Below, piece after piece: positions 23,001 through 28,923 of a DNA stretch of 64,000 bases. Position 1 is the first letter of the stretch. Every line of letters starts with the position of its first letter. The position numbers were made by a program, and so were the translations under genes. The DNA lies in NCBI GenBank assembly GCA_963803145.1, contig CAWDLW010000011.1:1-64000 (forward strand). The letters run 5' to 3'. The notes below the pieces were generated by a model that ran no database searches, had not been told where the DNA came from, and saw nothing but the letters and a program-made list of their open reading frames with translations. Source of the DNA: Methanotrichaceae archaeon. GTDB lineage: Archaea; Halobacteriota; Methanosarcinia; Methanotrichales; Methanotrichaceae.

Positions 23001-24138
23001 GAGGATTCCTATTTACTTGTATCCTAAGGGCGGTTTTTTTAAATCGACTCTAGATTTGCCTTACGATGTTCGCTATTCTTGGTCTAACCTGTTTTTTTTC
23101 AGTTAATTCTCGATAGCATCCGCTATCCCTAAATGACATTTGCCTTTTTAAGAGTACAAAGCTGATACAAGTTAAAAGCGAAAGCGGTAACTATCATTTT
23201 CACATGCACTCTTCTGACTGATGTAACAAGCACTCTTCCAGCCTCGAAAACCCTCTTGATTACAGCATGGGGCCTTTCGCCAGGCGATCTGAGGATACTG
23301 ATCAACTGATTGCGTTCTTTATCAAGATCAGAAAGAGGTTTATCAGTAGTCCTGCGCTTCATTGTAAAATCAATACCTTTGGCCTTCACACCGAAATATC
23401 CTCTATCTCTGAAAACTGGCACGCCAGGGATAGAGAGATCAACCTGACTGTCATGCAGTGATGCAGTCGAGGTCTCTATATCACGTATTAGGCTGTAATC
23501 GATATCAGTTATTTGATGTAACTTATATCCGAAGTGAGTTTCATTGCCTTTCTTAGCCCATGTGCCATCCTTGCTGCGACGTGTCTTAGCCTCATCGCCA
23601 CGTGGTTTCTTTGACTCCGATGATCCTGGATCTGCTTCTATAAAGGTAGCATCCTGAACAATTCCGCGTCTGATCTTCAATCCTTTTGCATCCAACTGTC
23701 TTTGAAGTTCAGCCCAAACAAGCCTATCTGTTCCTGTCTCCGCCATTCGTTCTTTGAATGACCATATAGTTCTGGAATCAGGGAACTGATCAGGAAAACC
23801 AAGAAATGCCATAAATGATATGCGATCAGCCATTTGCCGTTCAACAGCCAGATCGCTCAGGCCATACCACTGCTGGAGAATCAGGATCCTGAACATTAGA
23901 ATAACATCACAGTTGGGCCTTCCGCCCTTCTCGGTCTTATTAGTATACATCCCTTCCAGAAGAGGACGAAAGGGAACCCAATTGATCAATCCAGATACTT
24001 GAGCTAATTTAGACTCCTCTTGCTTTGCATTTAGACCTTTCAATACCCAAGTAGTAAAAGAATCCATAACAATAAATACTATTTGCTGTATTTAACACTT
24101 TCGATGCTAAAGCAGGGGGTAGGTTTATAGGAATCCTC
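23001..24138 (-). mobile_element. IS5-family insertion sequence
   Basis: Terminal inverted repeats GAGGATTCCTAT / ATAGGAATCCTC; 4-bp target duplication AAGC at 22997-23000 and 24139-24142. Confidence 0.95.
23129..24067 (-). CDS. IS5-family transposase
   Basis: LQQWYGLSD, QDATFIEA, FGYKLH, DRGYFG and RSPGERPHAVIK motifs. Confidence 0.95.
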   Translation of the reverse strand: MDSFTTWVLKGLNAKQEESKLAQVSGLINWVPFRPLLEGMYTNKTEKGGRPNCDVILMFRILILQQWYGLSDLAVERQMADRISFMAFLGFPDQFPDSRTIWSFKERMAETGTDRLVWAELQRQLDAKGLKIRRGIVQDATFIEADPGSSESKKPRGDEAKTRRSKDGTWAKKGNETHFGYKLHQITDIDYSLIRDIETSTASLHDSQVDLSIPGVPVFRDRGYFGVKAKGIDFTMKRRTTDKPLSDLDKERNQLISILRSPGERPHAVIKRVFEAGRVLVTSVRRVHVKMIVTAFAFNLYQLCTLKKANVI

Positions 24139-25399
24139 AAGCAGAGCATATAATAAAAAACACCATAAAAATATGCGATTGTGGTATGTTCACAAAGGAA
24201 GGCGCTAGGTTTTCCTATGAAGATCTATTTAGCATATACGAAAAAATGGGCGCAGATTATGGTATCATGATAGATGTCTTTAAAGATAGAGAAGCAACTT
24301 TGAAAAGTGCGAGAAATGCAATTGATATTTATAACAAGCATAATTATAAATTTAAATTGGTTTTAGTTGCCCAGGGGACTAGTGTAGAAGAATATGTTAA
24401 ATCGTATGAGGATCTATTAAACCTAGGAAGCGATTTTATTGCCGTAGGTGGTCTTCTTAAGAGACGCAAGAATACTGCGAGATATGTATATGTAGAAAGC
24501 TTGGGATTTATGAGCGATGTTCTTAAGTCGTTACGCAATGAATTTGATCCCAGTTGGCTATTTGCGTTAGGATGCTATCACCCTAAAAGGCATAAGATGT
24601 TCGAAGAATATGGGGTATGGGGTAGCGATTATAAAGGATGGATTTTTCAATATAAAAAGCGTGAGCGCTTGATACAAATTCATTGGGAAAATATAATTAA
24701 ACAGCTTAACGAAGTAGTTGGGGAAAATAGTGAGGCTACATTATCTTCATTTGCAGTTGAGATAAAAAAAAGGCGTGCAAAATTAATTAAGTACGAAAAG
24801 AAAGATTATAATAAATCGCGAAGGAATTTACCTGTTAAAGACAGAAATCCATTGTTCATAAAATTAGATTCTAAATTAATCCATGTGTTAAGTGATATTC
24901 AATCAGTATTATATTTGGATGGGTCTAGTTCTGTCATTGAAAATGAATTGAATTCTATAATATTACTAGCATCAACATCCGAACAACAAATTAGGTTTAA
25001 TCAATTGAGAAATTTAATCCGAAATCTCTCTTCAGTTAGGTCTAACATATAATCCAAAGCAAAGACCCTTATAAGAACTAGGATTTATTAAACAGGTACG
25101 AAGAACATCCTAATTTTAAAAAAATAATATTTTATCCCATATTTCGCAGTATTGATTTTCAAAATCTATAATTTTCATGAAACTTAGGTCAAATTAATAT
25201 TTACAATTTGCTGGTCAAATCGCTATTTCACACAAAAAAGAGGTGCCAAGATAACTGGCTCAAATAGTTTCTATTTTTCAAGTTGTTTACTTAAATTCGT
25301 TATTAGGATTCAATGTGCAAATTTAAATTAGCTTGAAAATTATTTTTGCTTGAAATGAAAGTGCGGAATGTGGGTTTTATCGATTTAAGAGGGCACAAA

Positions 25400-25475
25400 A
25401 ACGTGCGAGGGTTCACTTTATCCCCGAACTTTAGGTCGTGGTATTCGTTACCCTCGGCGTTCCAGAAGTAATAAA
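25400..25475. mobile_element. Possible IS200/IS605-type end or MITE remnant (nested hairpin)
   Basis: CGAGGGT (25406-25412) / ACCCTCG (25450-25456) enclose an imperfect inner hairpin; no transposase nearby. Confidence 0.3.
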
Positions 25476-25956
25476 TATATCATATGGAGTTAATACATAT
25501 AAATCTATTTAATCTTCATTGATATAGAATCCCCCCTATACCGATCAACATTGTCCACAATATGAGGAGATCCCCAAAGCCTCAGCCTTCAGCTTTCTTG
25601 CCTTCTTCAGTGCCTCAGACTGACTCATCTTTCCACAACTCCCTAAATATCTAGTGATAATCCTATTGCCTCCTGCCAGGAGCAAACCCACTTGAGATAA
25701 TTTCGATCGCCTTTCTTACCCTCTATCCAGCAATCTTCTCATCAATCGCTGATATCTCAAAGATTCGAATTTTGTAGCCGTTACACTATTCGCGATAACC
25801 ACACGATCGATCATATCATTTACCGCACTTTCAGGCTTGAAATCATTGGCGGTAACTATGCCGCAGCTCCTATTCACGCCTATGGTAAAATAAAGTGCAT
25901 AATAAATAGGAACATAGATCTTTAAACCAGTAAAGCCAGTAATTAAGGGGATATTA

Positions 25957-26466
25957 TTGAAGATAGAATCAATATTGTGTATAGTGCTAGTATCGCTAAT
26001 GTTCCCTACTGCTATGGCGGCAATAGGTTCTACAAGTGATACCACGCCGCCGAGCGTTATTAGTTTCAATTTTGGACCGAGGTTGGTAGATATATATAGC
26101 GGATCTCAGAATATCACATTCACAGTAAGATTGAAAGATGACTTAAGTGGTATTTCTGACGGAGAACTAGATGGAAATCCAGTAATCCCATCACAGGCAC
26201 GTTTCTATAGTGAATCGGGCGATAATTATCTTACTGTTGATTTTCGGTCACCGTCTAATGATCCCAAGTTTAACAATTCCAACCTTGTTTCGGGGAATAA
26301 GTTAGACGGTACTTATATTAGTAACATGGTTGTGCCAAGAGATGCTGAGCCTGGCAATTGGACACTCGAATACCTCTCGGTAGTTGATGAGGCGAACAAC
26401 AAGAGGGAATACGACACATACAAAATGTTTACGATGGGATTTCCAATCGAATTTTGGGTTGTATAA
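25957..26466 (+). CDS. Exported hypothetical protein (beta-rich, Ig-like)
   Basis: Signal peptide followed by DTTPP...DDLSG...GNWTLEYLSVVDEANN. Confidence 0.75.
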   Translation: MKIESILCIVLVSLMFPTAMAAIGSTSDTTPPSVISFNFGPRLVDIYSGSQNITFTVRLKDDLSGISDGELDGNPVIPSQARFYSESGDNYLTVDFRSPSNDPKFNNSNLVSGNKLDGTYISNMVVPRDAEPGNWTLEYLSVVDEANNKREYDTYKMFTMGFPIEFWVV

Positions 26467-26854
26467 GGAAATCGCATATAGCGGTTTCCTTTGTTTTGGA
26501 TAATATTGTAAACTCGATATGCTTTGACTACGAACTATGAACCTTTTGAAGTTGTATGTAGTAATCCTGTATGTTATGTATAGCAAATTGTACAACTTGC
26601 AGACCTCTGCAAAATCGGCCTAACGTCTATTCTACCTAGCCAATCATTCACATGCTTTATGGAATAAATTTTCGACAATTGCCCGAATACGATTTTTCGG
26701 CAGCGACTAAAACAAAAATGCGCTGTATAATCCGGAGCGCACACTCATGCCTTCACAGGTCGGATAGATGTTTATAAAAATGTGATACGGCTTCGAAGAT
26801 GCCAAAAATTGAAGGGACGGGCTTACAGGTTACGCGTACCCATGGGAGGTAGGG

Positions 26855-27187
26855 TCAGCCTGTATACCCCAAATCCTTGGCCTTGGCATAGGCTTCATTA
26901 GCTTCTTCGGTGCGGCCTAATGTATTGAGGATCATGGCTTTGCCGCTCCAGGCGTATGTATATTGGGGATCAATCTTCATGGCCTGATCAAAAGCTTGGT
27001 CATCAAAGAACAGAAAAGCGGTAGTTCCTCTTGATGTCTGCCAGCCTGTTGGATATTCAACTGTAAAGAATGGTCCATCCTAAATGGAATATTCGATCGC
27101 TTTCGCAATGGAAATAGGCGTTATATATAAAGCCAAAATCGAACATATACATAACGCCAAAGCTAAAATCCTCTTTCTGCGTTCCAC
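26855..27187 (-). pseudogene. Decayed exported TPR protein (internal TAG, probable internal deletion)
   Basis: GTG start, signal peptide, TAG at 27080-27082, then FTVEYPTGW and one TPR (AFDQAMKIDPQYTYAWSGKA...AKAKDLGYTG*). Confidence 0.7.
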
Positions 27188-27330
27188 GAATTATCCCTCT
27201 GGGTTTTAGGTATCACCCTGGCAATTCACTTTCCAAAGATAAATACTTTCAAGCCTTTTGCAGTTACCAGTAATCAGATATGAACAAGAATGGATAGAAA
27301 ATTAGAGAATGAAACAATAGTACTGTGAGG

Positions 27331-27671
27331 TTTTAGGCGAGCCAAACGCAGATTCACAGCGCCCTCCTCAGAGGGATCAACCACGGTAGTGGCGATCTTG
27401 AGACTCGCCTCGCACCTTCACACAGGCAATGCGAGACAGCACTGGTATCTGGCACAGCGCCCTTATTACAGGGACTCATTCATCAAGGATGAGGAGCCTG
27501 CACCCGCCTCGCCTGCACACATTCGATTCTCGCCGCGTTTATATACGAACTGAACGATGTATGCCTTAACTCGCTTTCGCCGAAAACTTCGCTGTTAAGC
27601 AAGGCGCTCCATTGAGGGTGGACATACGGCCCTCGGAACTTAATCGGCTACAGCCCTGTATCGCGGCAAAC
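27331..27671 (-). ncRNA. Candidate structured non-coding RNA of unknown family (~340 nt)
   Basis: GC-rich, no long ORF, two closed domains with at least 7 hairpins; BRE/TATA about 22 nt upstream on the minus strand. Confidence 0.6.
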
Positions 27672-27692
27672 TAACTATATTATCGTTATAGA

Positions 27693-27707
27693 TATTTATA
27701 CTTTTTG
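27693..27707 (-). promoter_or_regulatory. BRE/TATA promoter for the ncRNA candidate
   Basis: Minus strand reads CAAAAAG-TATAAATA. Confidence 0.6.
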
Positions 27708-27789
27708 GTAGAGTTTTAAATTTCCGCTTATAATGGAAATCAGAAATTAAGCAGCCACCCATGTGAAAGATTTCTCCATAATAGTACCG

Positions 27790-27977
27790 AAGAAGTCAGT
27801 TGAAGGATCTGAAGTCTAGAGCGAAGGTTCCGCAGGTTTGCAAAGGCTCAAGCCAGAAAAGCGAAGTTGGACAAGTGGATCTGGATAAGCTTGAGCGTGA
27901 TATCGAGGAAGAAGGCAATCGGGTTGCGCGAGAGAAGTACAAGATTTTTGCTGGACACTAATGTCTTTAGACTATAA
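27790..27977 (+). pseudogene. Remnant of an antitoxin/PIN-toxin (VapBC-like) pair
   Basis: Acidic antitoxin-like tail ...LDKLERDIEEEGNRVAREKYKIFAGH* overlaps a TTG-started RERSTRFLLDTNVF (PIN N-terminus) that stops two codons later. Confidence 0.55.
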
Positions 27978-28047
27978 TCGCTTAAATTTTCAGATAACAC
28001 ATTTATAGCAAATGCCATCATTTTCTAAAAGTACGAAGTGATAATAA

Positions 28048-28923
28048 ATGAGTATAAAGAAAAATACAGAAAAGAGCATATTCAGCCTTGTCGCAGTGAC
28101 GATCGCAGCCTCTCTATTTTTTTGCACCATCGCCGCCTCAGGCCAGGCTGTACCTAACGGCAATGCATCGGCTGCAAATAATTCTGCCGCCGATATGACC
28201 TTCAAGCTCCTTCAGATCCAGGCGGATGTGCAGGGGAGCCTGAACGATTTGGATGCAGATGTGGCAAATGCATCTCAGAATCTCTCGGCAACGGGCCTTG
28301 AGGGCGACGCAGCTCGTGGAGTTCTGAGCAAGCTGATGGAAACTAACACAAACCTGGTCGAAGCAGTGACGGTCAGCAAGAATGGAACGATCGCTGTGGC
28401 TGAATGCAAAGACTGCGAGGGCGGCGAAGGCGCTAACATAAGCAACCAGGAGCATATAGCCCATATTCTGAAGGATAAAACACCAGCGTTCAGCGACGAG
28501 TTCCTGCTTGTGGAAGGATATAATGGCACTGCTCTCGCATATCCAGTCTTCTCTCCGCAAGGTGAGCTATTGGGCGGCATCAGCACAATCATCAAGCCTG
28601 ATAGTCTGGTAAATGCCAACGTGGCTCCAAAGCTGAACGGCACAAACTACAGCTTCTGGGTGATGCAGCTGGATGGCCTGATTGCCTACGACAGAGATTC
28701 AAGCCAGATTGGGAAATATCTATTCGAAGATCCGCTTTATAAATCATTCACAAGCCTTCTGGCCTTGGGACATACTATGGTGGCTGAGAGGTCGGGGCAT
28801 GGCAACTACAGCTTCCAGGTCACTGAGGGCAATAAGACTGTAGTAACCAAGGATGTCTACTGGACTACTGTTGGGCTTCATGGGAAGGAATGGCGGCTTG
28901 CCATCACCAGGATAATGAGCTGA
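28048..28923 (+). CDS. Exported Cache-domain protein
   Basis: Signal peptide; AYPVFSPQGELLGGIS, WVMQLDGLIAYD and EWRLAIT motifs. Confidence 0.8.
   Translation: MSIKKNTEKSIFSLVAVTIAASLFFCTIAASGQAVPNGNASAANNSAADMTFKLLQIQADVQGSLNDLDADVANASQNLSATGLEGDAARGVLSKLMETNTNLVEAVTVSKNGTIAVAECKDCEGGEGANISNQEHIAHILKDKTPAFSDEFLLVEGYNGTALAYPVFSPQGELLGGISTIIKPDSLVNANVAPKLNGTNYSFWVMQLDGLIAYDRDSSQIGKYLFEDPLYKSFTSLLALGHTMVAERSGHGNYSFQVTEGNKTVVTKDVYWTTVGLHGKEWRLAITRIMS

Follow-up and report, generated by a model that had tools for sequence, protein, structure and literature searches.

A modular family of structured RNAs in Methanotrichaceae, represented by a minus-strand non-coding RNA gene with a conserved promoter

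Location, strand and extent of the RNA gene

The window analysed here is a stretch of 64,000 nucleotides from a Methanotrichaceae archaeon (assembly GCA_963803145.1, contig CAWDLW010000011.1, positions 1 to 64,000), in which a preliminary description, made from the letters alone, had singled out positions 27,331 to 27,671 as a candidate structured RNA with its own archaeal promoter. We find at this place a genuine non-coding RNA gene of about 345 nt, which lies on the minus strand, runs from about 27,670 to 27,324 and is independently transcribed. Read along that strand, the locus comprises a family-specific archaeal promoter block (27685-27708), the RNA itself (27324-27670, with approximate ends taken from the conserved block and from the structure of 34 orthologues) and a T-rich tract (27290-27318) that, as read from the sequence, could act as an archaeal oligo-T terminator. 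This RNA belongs to one class, which we call S, of an undescribed modular RNA family that is restricted to Methanotrichaceae among the genomes searched; its members are usually built from the family-specific promoter, a 5' domain closed by a helix termed P1 (about 140-320 nt, according to class) and two four-way-junction modules of about 95 nt each. A conserved promoter, covarying stems, broken open reading frames (ORFs) and the lack of a conserved neighbouring gene all bear out the initial view of an independently transcribed structured RNA.

The locus has the composition first ascribed to it, with a GC content of 0.515-0.53 over 27300-27600, against about 0.37-0.42 in the flanks, and with overlapping ORFs that are all of 54 amino acids or fewer. 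Three short internal ORFs are intact in just 3, 8 and 9 of the 34 orthologues, so the stretch is not coding. Folded as a single sequence, the minus strand reached -132.9 kcal/mol (z = -2.41), a value matched by 0 of 100 shuffles, and the plus strand gave z = -1.08, with 14 of 100 shuffles as good; this single-sequence signal is modest, and the comparative evidence is decisive. G-U pairs and the alifold energy favour the minus strand of the window, in agreement with the strand first assigned. The consensus of the 34 orthologues contains 499 G-U cells, which lose their pairing when the opposite strand is read, leaving 2928 of 3596 cells paired (81.4%) versus 3367, and the RNA is therefore placed on the minus strand; the corresponding alifold energies are -193.5 kcal/mol for the minus strand and -144.4 kcal/mol for the opposite one.

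The promoter proposed for this RNA corresponds to a block on the minus strand made up of an A-rich stretch resembling a B recognition element (BRE) and two TATA-like elements. It is kept in 14 aligned copies from 12 genomes and ends about 15 nt upstream of the UUUGCCGCG with which the RNA would begin, the position of the transcription start being inferred. The same block precedes paralogous RNAs within this genome, and the sequence between the TATA element and the start is conserved as well. When the 14 copies were aligned, conservation began at the promoter block, spanned the RNA and ended after ...CUCAC; the left edge originally set at 27331 was too short, as the RNA continues for about 7 nt more, to about 27324. 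T-rich tails are found downstream of other copies too. Short BLAST matches to the promoter, where fetched as loci, all adjoin another member of the family, except at the locus L023 described below.

Fold and covariation

The structure was derived from alignment A5, which contains 34 distinct full-length orthologues and yields a consensus of 108 pairs in 17 helices. The stems covary among these homologues: 93.6% of the cells are paired, compared with 34-45% when the pairing is put out of register by sliding the 3' strands by 1-3 columns, and both sides change in 32 pairs. After column shuffling, 0 of 500 alignments reached four of the five measures and 1 of 500 reached the fifth.

The 5' domain (27530-27669) is closed by helix P1, in which UUGCCGCG (27662-27669) pairs with CGCGGCGA (27530-27537); the closure of GCCGCG (27532-27537) by CGCGGC (27662-27667) recognised at the outset is present and forms part of this helix. 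Its interior is a multi-helix junction with conserved GCCGAUUAAG and GUCUUCGG segments, and helices 1-7, which make up the domain, are paired in 87.5-98% of cells, each with changes on both sides. A linker of 13 nt, unpaired in the consensus structure (27517-27529), leads to module 1 (27422-27516), a four-way junction with a long closing stem that comprises helices 8-12 of A5 and helices 1-5 of the alignment of 86 paralogues introduced below. Its three hairpins are the variable A1 (27473-27498), B1 with the sequence CCCU-GUAAUA-AGGG (27460-27473) and C1 with the sequence GCGCUG(U)G-loop-CCAGUGC (27439-27460). Module 2 (27324-27421; helices 13-17 of A5, helices 6-11 of the paralogue alignment) is a four-way junction of the same design, with an outer stem (27416-27421 with 27324-27329), a closing stem (27404-27410 with 27335-27341), hairpin A2 with a UACC loop (27375-27400), hairpin B2, CCCUC-UGAG-GAGGG (27361-27374), and hairpin C2 (27345-27360); all these elements are read on the minus strand. 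Module 2 is rich in changes on both sides, with one pair occurring as AU 35 times, CG 20, GC 8 and GU 20.

Several elements of the preliminary description are present in the sequence, namely the hairpins near 27362-27375, 27460-27473 and 27475-27493 and the module CACAGCG-CCCT-n6-AGGGA, which is present twice, at 27355 and 27453. The proposed closure of a single second domain by AGGCGAG (27335) and CTCGCCT (27508) has to be replaced: in the pairing that is conserved and covaries, 27335-27341 is joined to the other CTCGCCT (27404-27410), and this domain therefore consists of two separate four-way junctions, modules 1 and 2. A scan for extra covarying column pairs yielded no convincing pseudoknot or loop-loop pair, and the highest mutual information fell on known helices or on column pairs with a phylogenetic signal at the level of classes.

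Comparison with Rfam and the literature

The 64-kb window was searched with the covariance models of Rfam 15 in a check of the Infernal type, and 0 of 4227 families matched at the gathering score; at E <= 10 over 26800-28100, nothing overlapped the RNA. The RNase P, signal recognition particle (SRP), tRNA and group I/II signatures that the first reading did not recognise are indeed lacking, as none of these families gave an Rfam match. Archaeal RNase P RNA (RF00373), without a match here, has genuine copies at three other places of the genome (208-215 bits), and archaeal SRP RNA (RF01857), likewise without a match here, is genuinely present on contig C34 (181 bits); a profile of the window RNA in turn had no match at the RNase P and SRP RNA loci of the genome. 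ARAGORN predicted 0 tRNA genes in the window, with no tRNA-clan match at E <= 10, and group I and group II introns were rejected for want of any Rfam match. The same holds for the large structured RNAs represented in Rfam 15 (OLE, GOLLD, ROOL, raiA and others), none of whose covariance models matched. C/D-box and H/ACA RNAs gave three matches far below threshold (12.7-18.1 bits versus cut-offs of 36-90), all outside 27324-27670. At the loci of the paralogues described below, Rfam identified only two tRNA genes, both lying outside the paralogue RNAs. No non-coding RNA of this kind from Methanothrix or Methanosaeta was described in the literature searched, 2026 preprints included, although the supplements of discovery papers could list one. 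The family is thus a new structured RNA family with no Rfam relative.

The three RNase P RNA places in this genome are C9:3971-4272, C38:46773-47074 and C17:254301-254602, two of them with identical scores; they may be true paralogues or strain duplicates, the assembly being rated 6.77% contaminated.

Relatives and paralogue classes

The RNA is not the orphan that it was first taken to be, since it has three copies in this genome and a large family of related RNAs. A block of about 375 nt occurs in the window, at C2:11413-11786 and at C18:43384-43755 (coordinates on contigs C2 and C18), with 87% identity. Of 60 other related genomes, BLAST detected full-length relatives (68-81% identity) in 11, every one of them in family f1, and 24 genomes from two sister families gave no match. 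An S-class gene is located at C1:2887539-2887920 in the single-contig genome G035. When one genome per prokaryote species was scanned for a pattern, the carriers bore the titles Methanothrix, Methanosaeta or Methanotrichaceae, and a few contigs were labelled otherwise, among which one small contig labelled bacterial holds a full copy.

A profile of the 3' half matched many loci that BLAST had matched only at the promoter or at one module, and these loci are paralogous RNAs. Most of the paralogues inspected agree with the S class in their promoter, UUUGCCGCG start and P1 closure, and the same two modules follow. Helix P1 is common to the larger paralogues, in which the span from P1 to the modules is about 250-320 nt, versus about 140-160 nt in the S class. 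Alignment A4, composed of 86 distinct 3' halves of paralogues with 53 pairs, is 90.5% paired, compared with 37-47% when slid, and both sides change in 36 pairs; 0 of 500 shuffles reached any measure.

From A4 we built the covariance model R1, which covers the 3' half only, the 5' domain being searched by BLAST and nhmmer. R1 gave 14 matches in this genome, corresponding to the 3 S-class copies, 6 larger paralogues and 5 'mini' RNAs, and it matched 56 of 74 other Methanotrichaceae genomes with 1-12 matches each; by a by-genus tally, an RNA of the family is present in 12 genera. Outside Methanotrichaceae, R1 had no match in 76 genomes drawn from four other families of the class and, at E <= 0.001, none in 146 non-family genomes of a phylum-wide sample, where one marginal match of 18 bits was rejected as it falls in an apparent coding sequence. 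Within Methanotrichaceae, R1 was blank in the genera g6 (0/7), g5 (0/3), g12 (0/2) and g3 (0/1), and five negative genomes searched again with laxer filters produced 15-bit noise only.

The mini RNAs (C14:1448-1591, C20:66229-66388, C18:45611-45754, C42:46597-46749 and C17:87104-87241; 26-52 bits with R1) are mostly single-module RNAs. The C14 copy, the only one read further upstream, is preceded by its own promoter-like sequence, and one mini RNA is located between the gene of an HrcA-like regulator and gatC/gatA. A further candidate on the minus strand of L023:1290-1530 combines the family promoter with a 5' domain of about 190 nt that P1 closes, and no four-way-junction module follows; it lies in genome G022, one of the five negative genomes searched again, where R1 gave no match. 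One-module, two-module and 5'-domain-only forms therefore indicate that the parts combine differently from one RNA to another.

Sequence conservation points to one part of this architecture. Columns with at least 95% identity across the 86 paralogues cluster in hairpins B1 and C1 of module 1, loop positions included, and this conserved pair reads CCC-GUAA-A-GGGCGCUGUG...CCAGUGCUG, its two hairpins being CCC-GUAA-A-GGG and GCGCUGUG...CCAGUGCUG. Written as a consensus per module, the hairpin pair is CCCY-GUAARA-RGGG with an adjacent GCGCUG...CAGYGC, which is almost invariant and occurs once or twice per RNA; module 2 follows this design, and its sequence varies more. A G-C pair closes the C1 loop in 84 of the 86 sequences, and the A three nucleotides before the closing C of that loop is invariant among them. 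No hypervariable loop was seen among the three copies in this genome or the 86 paralogues.

Genomic neighbourhood

The window copy has as neighbours a fragmentary DUF7743/DUF7035 ORF and, on the other side, genes for a sensor-domain protein, a NUDIX protein and a flavin reductase; at the S-class locus of genome G032, too, the RNA has the sensor-domain gene as a neighbour. A transposase gene of the IS5-like insertion sequence (IS) type lies 3.3 kb from the RNA, at 23129-24067. The interval 25060-27310 is poor in ORFs and consists of a mosaic of about 2.2 kb of fragments repeated in this and sister genomes, in which, for example, 25127-25385 recurs at three other places with 95-98% identity and 26724-27253 matches C18:58973-59855 at 88%; downstream of the RNA, 2.3 kb contain repeat fragments and short ORFs only. 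Just upstream of the promoter, and outside the RNA, there is an imperfect palindrome of the AATTTCTGATT ... AATCAGAAATT type (27716-27749, with no strand assigned), a separate short repeat that the C2 and C18 copies have in common and for which BLAST returned 12 further short matches, at query positions 410-461, in the three genomes of this genus; a small repeat and a binding site for a protein are both conceivable.

The S-class loci have no conserved neighbouring gene, and apart from the shared sensor-domain gene the neighbours in the 11 other genomes are unrelated housekeeping genes, with no integrase among them. On contig C18, about 530 nt separate the copy from a gene of the phage-integrase family, and an IS1-like ORF is nearby. 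We saw neither terminal repeats nor target duplications around the copies. At one S-class locus (L008, genome G026), and in that genome only, the RNA is placed between the gene of an S-adenosylmethionine-dependent RNA methyltransferase (PF04013) and that of the pseudouridine synthase Pus10; these RNA-modification neighbours are of note given the T-arm-like hairpin of the modules.

Another class of the family is syntenic in 32 loci, in the order Trm5-like gene, metallo-beta-lactamase (MBL) hydrolase, RNA, Hsp20 and GlyRS. In this class RNA and Hsp20 gene are on the same strand, and the 3' domain starts about 270-500 nt before the Hsp20 ORF in most loci. Genes related to stress adjoin 3 of 14 loci, the neighbours being Hsp20, an M48 peptidase with PspAB and the HrcA-like regulator. 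Elsewhere in this genome (L180, C18:125300-135000), two large paralogues with the same orientation are separated by 1.4 kb that include an MC1 chromatin-protein gene, and a Cas1 gene about 1.3 kb beyond them is the only Cas gene seen near loci of the family.

In genus g2, a further class follows closely after a DUF1699 gene of the same orientation, in at least 17 pairs with gaps of 20-591 nt. These pairs belong to a cassette of about 1.2 kb, which is made up of the DUF1699 gene, promoter plus RNA and a tail of about 150 nt and has multiplied within genomes (L192, L197-L203), and a unit of about 550 nt formed by promoter and RNA is present in some copies and missing from others; at L200 the 5' domain of the RNA is deleted and the DUF1699 stop codon abuts the 3' strand of P1. 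DUF1699 has 7 copies in this genome, none adjacent to an RNA. A sequence search of the PDB gave chance hits only (E about 0.4), and a resolvase-type helix-turn-helix occurs in 27% of the members of one related Atlas cluster (score 0.79, under the lead threshold of 0.9). The protein looks DNA-binding and is perhaps a regulator of the shared promoter. As a partner of the RNA it was rejected, since it is also found in RNA-negative genera and is not adjacent here, and we keep it as a lead only.

The family was also sought in collections of mobile DNA, where no match was found in 72,556 plasmids or 50,697 phage records. In a collection of viral contigs, one of two pattern matches is genuine (119 bits; L188:1-139, cut by the end of the locus). 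This member is carried by a 37.8-kb contig filed as viral, about 5.5 kb from the gene of an ArdC-like anti-restriction protein/metallopeptidase, and could represent a provirus flank or the cargo of an element.

Presence in RNA libraries

Part of the stretch is contained in 23 runs recorded as RNA, which come from 13 studies. From four metatranscriptome runs of four studies, 133 contigs map to 27316-27693, with coverage inside the RNA at 27346-27669, and 16 of them are at least 99% alike; word depths reach up to thousands and are not taken here as expression levels. No contig covers 27100-27315 or 27694-27900, which says nothing on the ends of the RNA, given that the runs were picked with this stretch and that the flanks of relatives would not match. 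One contig (run X3) joins position 27419, at the boundary of modules 1 and 2, back to 27655, which falls just inside P1, and one extra letter stands at the joint; the contig could come from a permuted paralogue of another organism, from a circular RNA or from an assembly artefact, and may leave room for permuted or circular forms in the family.

Possible roles of the RNA

We consider a trans-acting ribonucleoprotein (RNP) scaffold to be the most suitable reading of these data and put its chance at between about one in three and even. According to this proposal, the RNA would act in trans as a stable RNP scaffold, in which the invariant hairpin pair, present twice, would be a docking site for a protein or would form a fixed tertiary contact; the class-specific 5' domain would confer on each paralogue its own role, and the shared promoter would place the whole family under common control. 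The invariance of B1 and C1, loops included, together with the closing G-C pair kept in almost all paralogues, favours a sequence-specific site over mere structure. The duplicated module had initially been read as two protein-binding or guide units; the protein-binding half of that suggestion is compatible with our results and is the one that we prefer, and the guide half is disfavoured because guides would be expected to vary in the loops of the module, which are conserved here, although no search for complementarity to other loci was made.

Several observations weigh against a scaffold. No protein partner has been identified, and the mechanism is inference only; DUF1699, the only recurrent protein neighbour of any class, is yet present in 76 of 76 genomes of the family, including those of RNA-negative genera. 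Stems are on average more conserved than loops (0.82 vs 0.61), so that a purely RNA-based architecture would fit too. The copy number ranges from 0 to 14, BLAST did not find the S class in the two genomes of the same genus, and two of the three copies in this genome are near mobile-element genes, which hints at a turnover that would be unusual for a core RNP. Moreover, assembled contigs tell of presence in a library and not of strand, ends or level, and DNA may contaminate RNA libraries.

A broader and more speculative reading, which we regard as doubtful, is that Methanotrichaceae evolved a private 'kit' of RNA parts, in which the four-way-junction module with its T-arm-like hairpin and the P1-closed 5' domain would be combined into up to 14 separately transcribed RNAs per cell. 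The module would then be a mimic of the tRNA elbow, or else a docking unit for a lineage-specific RNP machine or for higher-order RNA assemblies.

Two other explanations are close rivals of the scaffold. The first is an RNA that folds by itself and needs no dedicated protein, either a large ribozyme or, in the way of the bacterial 'large ornate' RNAs, an architectural RNA that assembles by itself, with a GNRA-like B loop and a T-loop-like C loop making tertiary or intermolecular contacts. The elaborate covarying multi-junction fold would suit such an RNA, and so would the invariant loop positions (GUAA in hairpin B and the A three nucleotides before the G-C pair closing C1), the repeated modules, which could multimerise, and the coverage of the RNA by contigs from the four metatranscriptome runs. 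However, a catalytic signature or cleavage site is not known, the scan for additional covarying pairs gave no convincing pseudoknot or loop-loop pair, and the labels GNRA-like and T-loop-like express a resemblance to these motifs. We judge this explanation unlikely.

The second close rival, to which we attribute a similarly low probability, is a protein-titrating regulator that would work in the manner of Csr/Rsm or 6S RNAs, with co-regulated paralogues bearing one or two sites each and sequestering an RNA-binding protein or a tRNA-handling enzyme. It would account for the repeated invariant module, for the existence of paralogues with 1, 2 or 0 modules and for the T-arm-like character of hairpin C; the shared promoter, conserved even between the TATA element and the start, suggests common regulation, and some copies lie near stress genes (Hsp20, M48 peptidase with PspAB, HrcA-like regulator). 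Nevertheless, there is no known candidate protein, a conserved and structured 5' domain of 140-320 nt that differs between classes exceeds the needs of a sponge, and stress neighbours are found at just 3 of the 14 loci, where only the Hsp20 link is conserved across genomes and belongs to a wider synteny.

An RNA gene spread by or derived from mobile DNA, be it the cargo of a virus or integrative element or a repeat like a short interspersed nuclear element (SINE), with no role for the host, appears to us rather improbable. Such an origin would be in keeping with a copy number of 0-14 that is patchy across genera, with an S class present three times here and not found in two genomes of the same genus, and with the surroundings of individual copies: the phage-integrase-family gene and IS1-like ORF near the C18 copy, the repeat mosaic and IS5-like transposase around the window copy, the ArdC-like gene near the member on a predicted viral contig, and the unit of about 550 nt, promoter and RNA, variably present in the duplicated DUF1699 cassettes of one genus. 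On the other hand, terminal repeats and target duplications were not seen, the plasmid and phage collections were empty of the family and the viral contigs held one true match; one class occupies a stable chromosomal synteny across 32 loci, and in 11 other genomes the S-class RNA is surrounded by housekeeping genes, without any integrase. Because the structure covaries strongly across genera, selection acts on the RNA itself. A mobile-DNA origin accounts for the patchy copy number, but not for the syntenic class or for the structural selection.

That the RNA guides a nuclease or recombinase, as omega RNAs, HEARO and bridge RNAs do, with the modules as target- and donor-binding units, we regard as very unlikely. 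Two similar modules per RNA, multiple copies and the proximity of some of them to mobile-element genes would agree with such a function, but no TnpB, IscB, Cas or IS110-type ORF is adjacent to the window copy, the 13 other loci in this genome or the 11 S-class loci elsewhere; within the modules, conservation is highest at the loops and internal positions, with no hypervariable segment, and there is no Rfam match to HEARO. Even less credit is due to a cis-acting leader or thermosensor of a downstream gene: the class found upstream of Hsp20 on the same strand in 32 loci would allow it for that gene, but T-runs separate the RNA from Hsp20 and the link is part of a wider conserved gene order, while the S class, which is separate from the Hsp20-linked one, has no conserved downstream gene and is followed in the window by repeats and short ORFs, for which reasons a cis-regulatory leader or riboswitch was rejected. 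Lastly, a decayed coding sequence or IS remnant with fortuitous structure, to which the ORF-poor, repeat-rich 3-kb stretch around the window copy might point, is refuted by covarying stems and unconserved frames, besides the conserved promoter and the occurrence of the RNA in 12 genera, and we dismiss it.

Significance

Methanothrix and its relatives are major biological sources of methane in wetlands, rice fields and digesters, and to our knowledge their RNA biology is almost unexplored. In bacteria, comparable discoveries have yielded new ribozymes, RNP machines and RNA architectures. What is described here is a lineage-restricted family of large, covarying, promoter-bearing RNAs that has up to 14 genes per genome, is represented by contigs from soil and sediment metatranscriptomes and has no counterpart in Rfam. 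The finding is thus larger than the first reading of the locus, and is relevant both to RNA biology and to a globally important lineage of methanogens. Its natural one-module, two-module and 5'-domain-only versions are ready-made deletion variants for biochemical and structural work, and the family provides a specific transcript marker for Methanotrichaceae in metatranscriptomes. If the RNA-kit proposal were true, it would add a new class of cellular RNP in one of the main methane-producing archaeal lineages.

Comparison with known systems

Among the RNAs of archaea, RNase P and SRP RNAs resemble the window RNA in their similar size, in a GC-rich fold within AT-richer DNA, in being stand-alone genes with a strong promoter and in their four-way junctions. 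The modules also recall tRNA, as they are cloverleaf-like and the C1 loop of about 7-8 nt is closed by a G-C pair with an invariant A three nucleotides before the closing C; the terms T-arm-like for hairpin C1 and GNRA-like for loop B express a resemblance. The modules differ from tRNA in their stem lengths, in having no linker nucleotides and in lacking a 7-nt loop of the anticodon type.

Omega RNAs, HEARO and IS110 bridge RNAs are likewise structured RNAs of a few hundred nucleotides in multiple copies, and the bridge RNA also has two similar units. In contrast to them, the window RNA has neither an adjacent nuclease or recombinase nor variable guide loops, and some classes of its family are located at conserved chromosomal positions.

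The sponge RNAs of the Csr/Rsm systems form sets of several paralogues (CsrB/C, RsmX/Y/Z). Their likeness to the present family lies in a repeated hairpin unit of conserved sequence, in co-regulated paralogues with a conserved promoter region and in a copy number that varies among species, whereas the unit is here a four-way junction of about 95 nt instead of a short GGA hairpin, is present 1-2 times per RNA and is accompanied by a large 5' domain.

A final comparison is with OLE, GOLLD, ROOL and raiA, large structured bacterial RNAs of unknown or recently emerging function that are represented in Rfam. With these the family shares its length (350-520 nt here), a covarying multi-junction fold, a stand-alone gene, a narrow range, the presence of contigs from RNA libraries on the window RNA and the lack of an obvious partner gene. 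It differs from them in that the window RNA is archaeal and matches them in neither sequence nor structure, and in that its family is built on a repeated four-way-junction module, with up to 14 paralogues per genome under a shared promoter, where theirs occur in one or a few copies.

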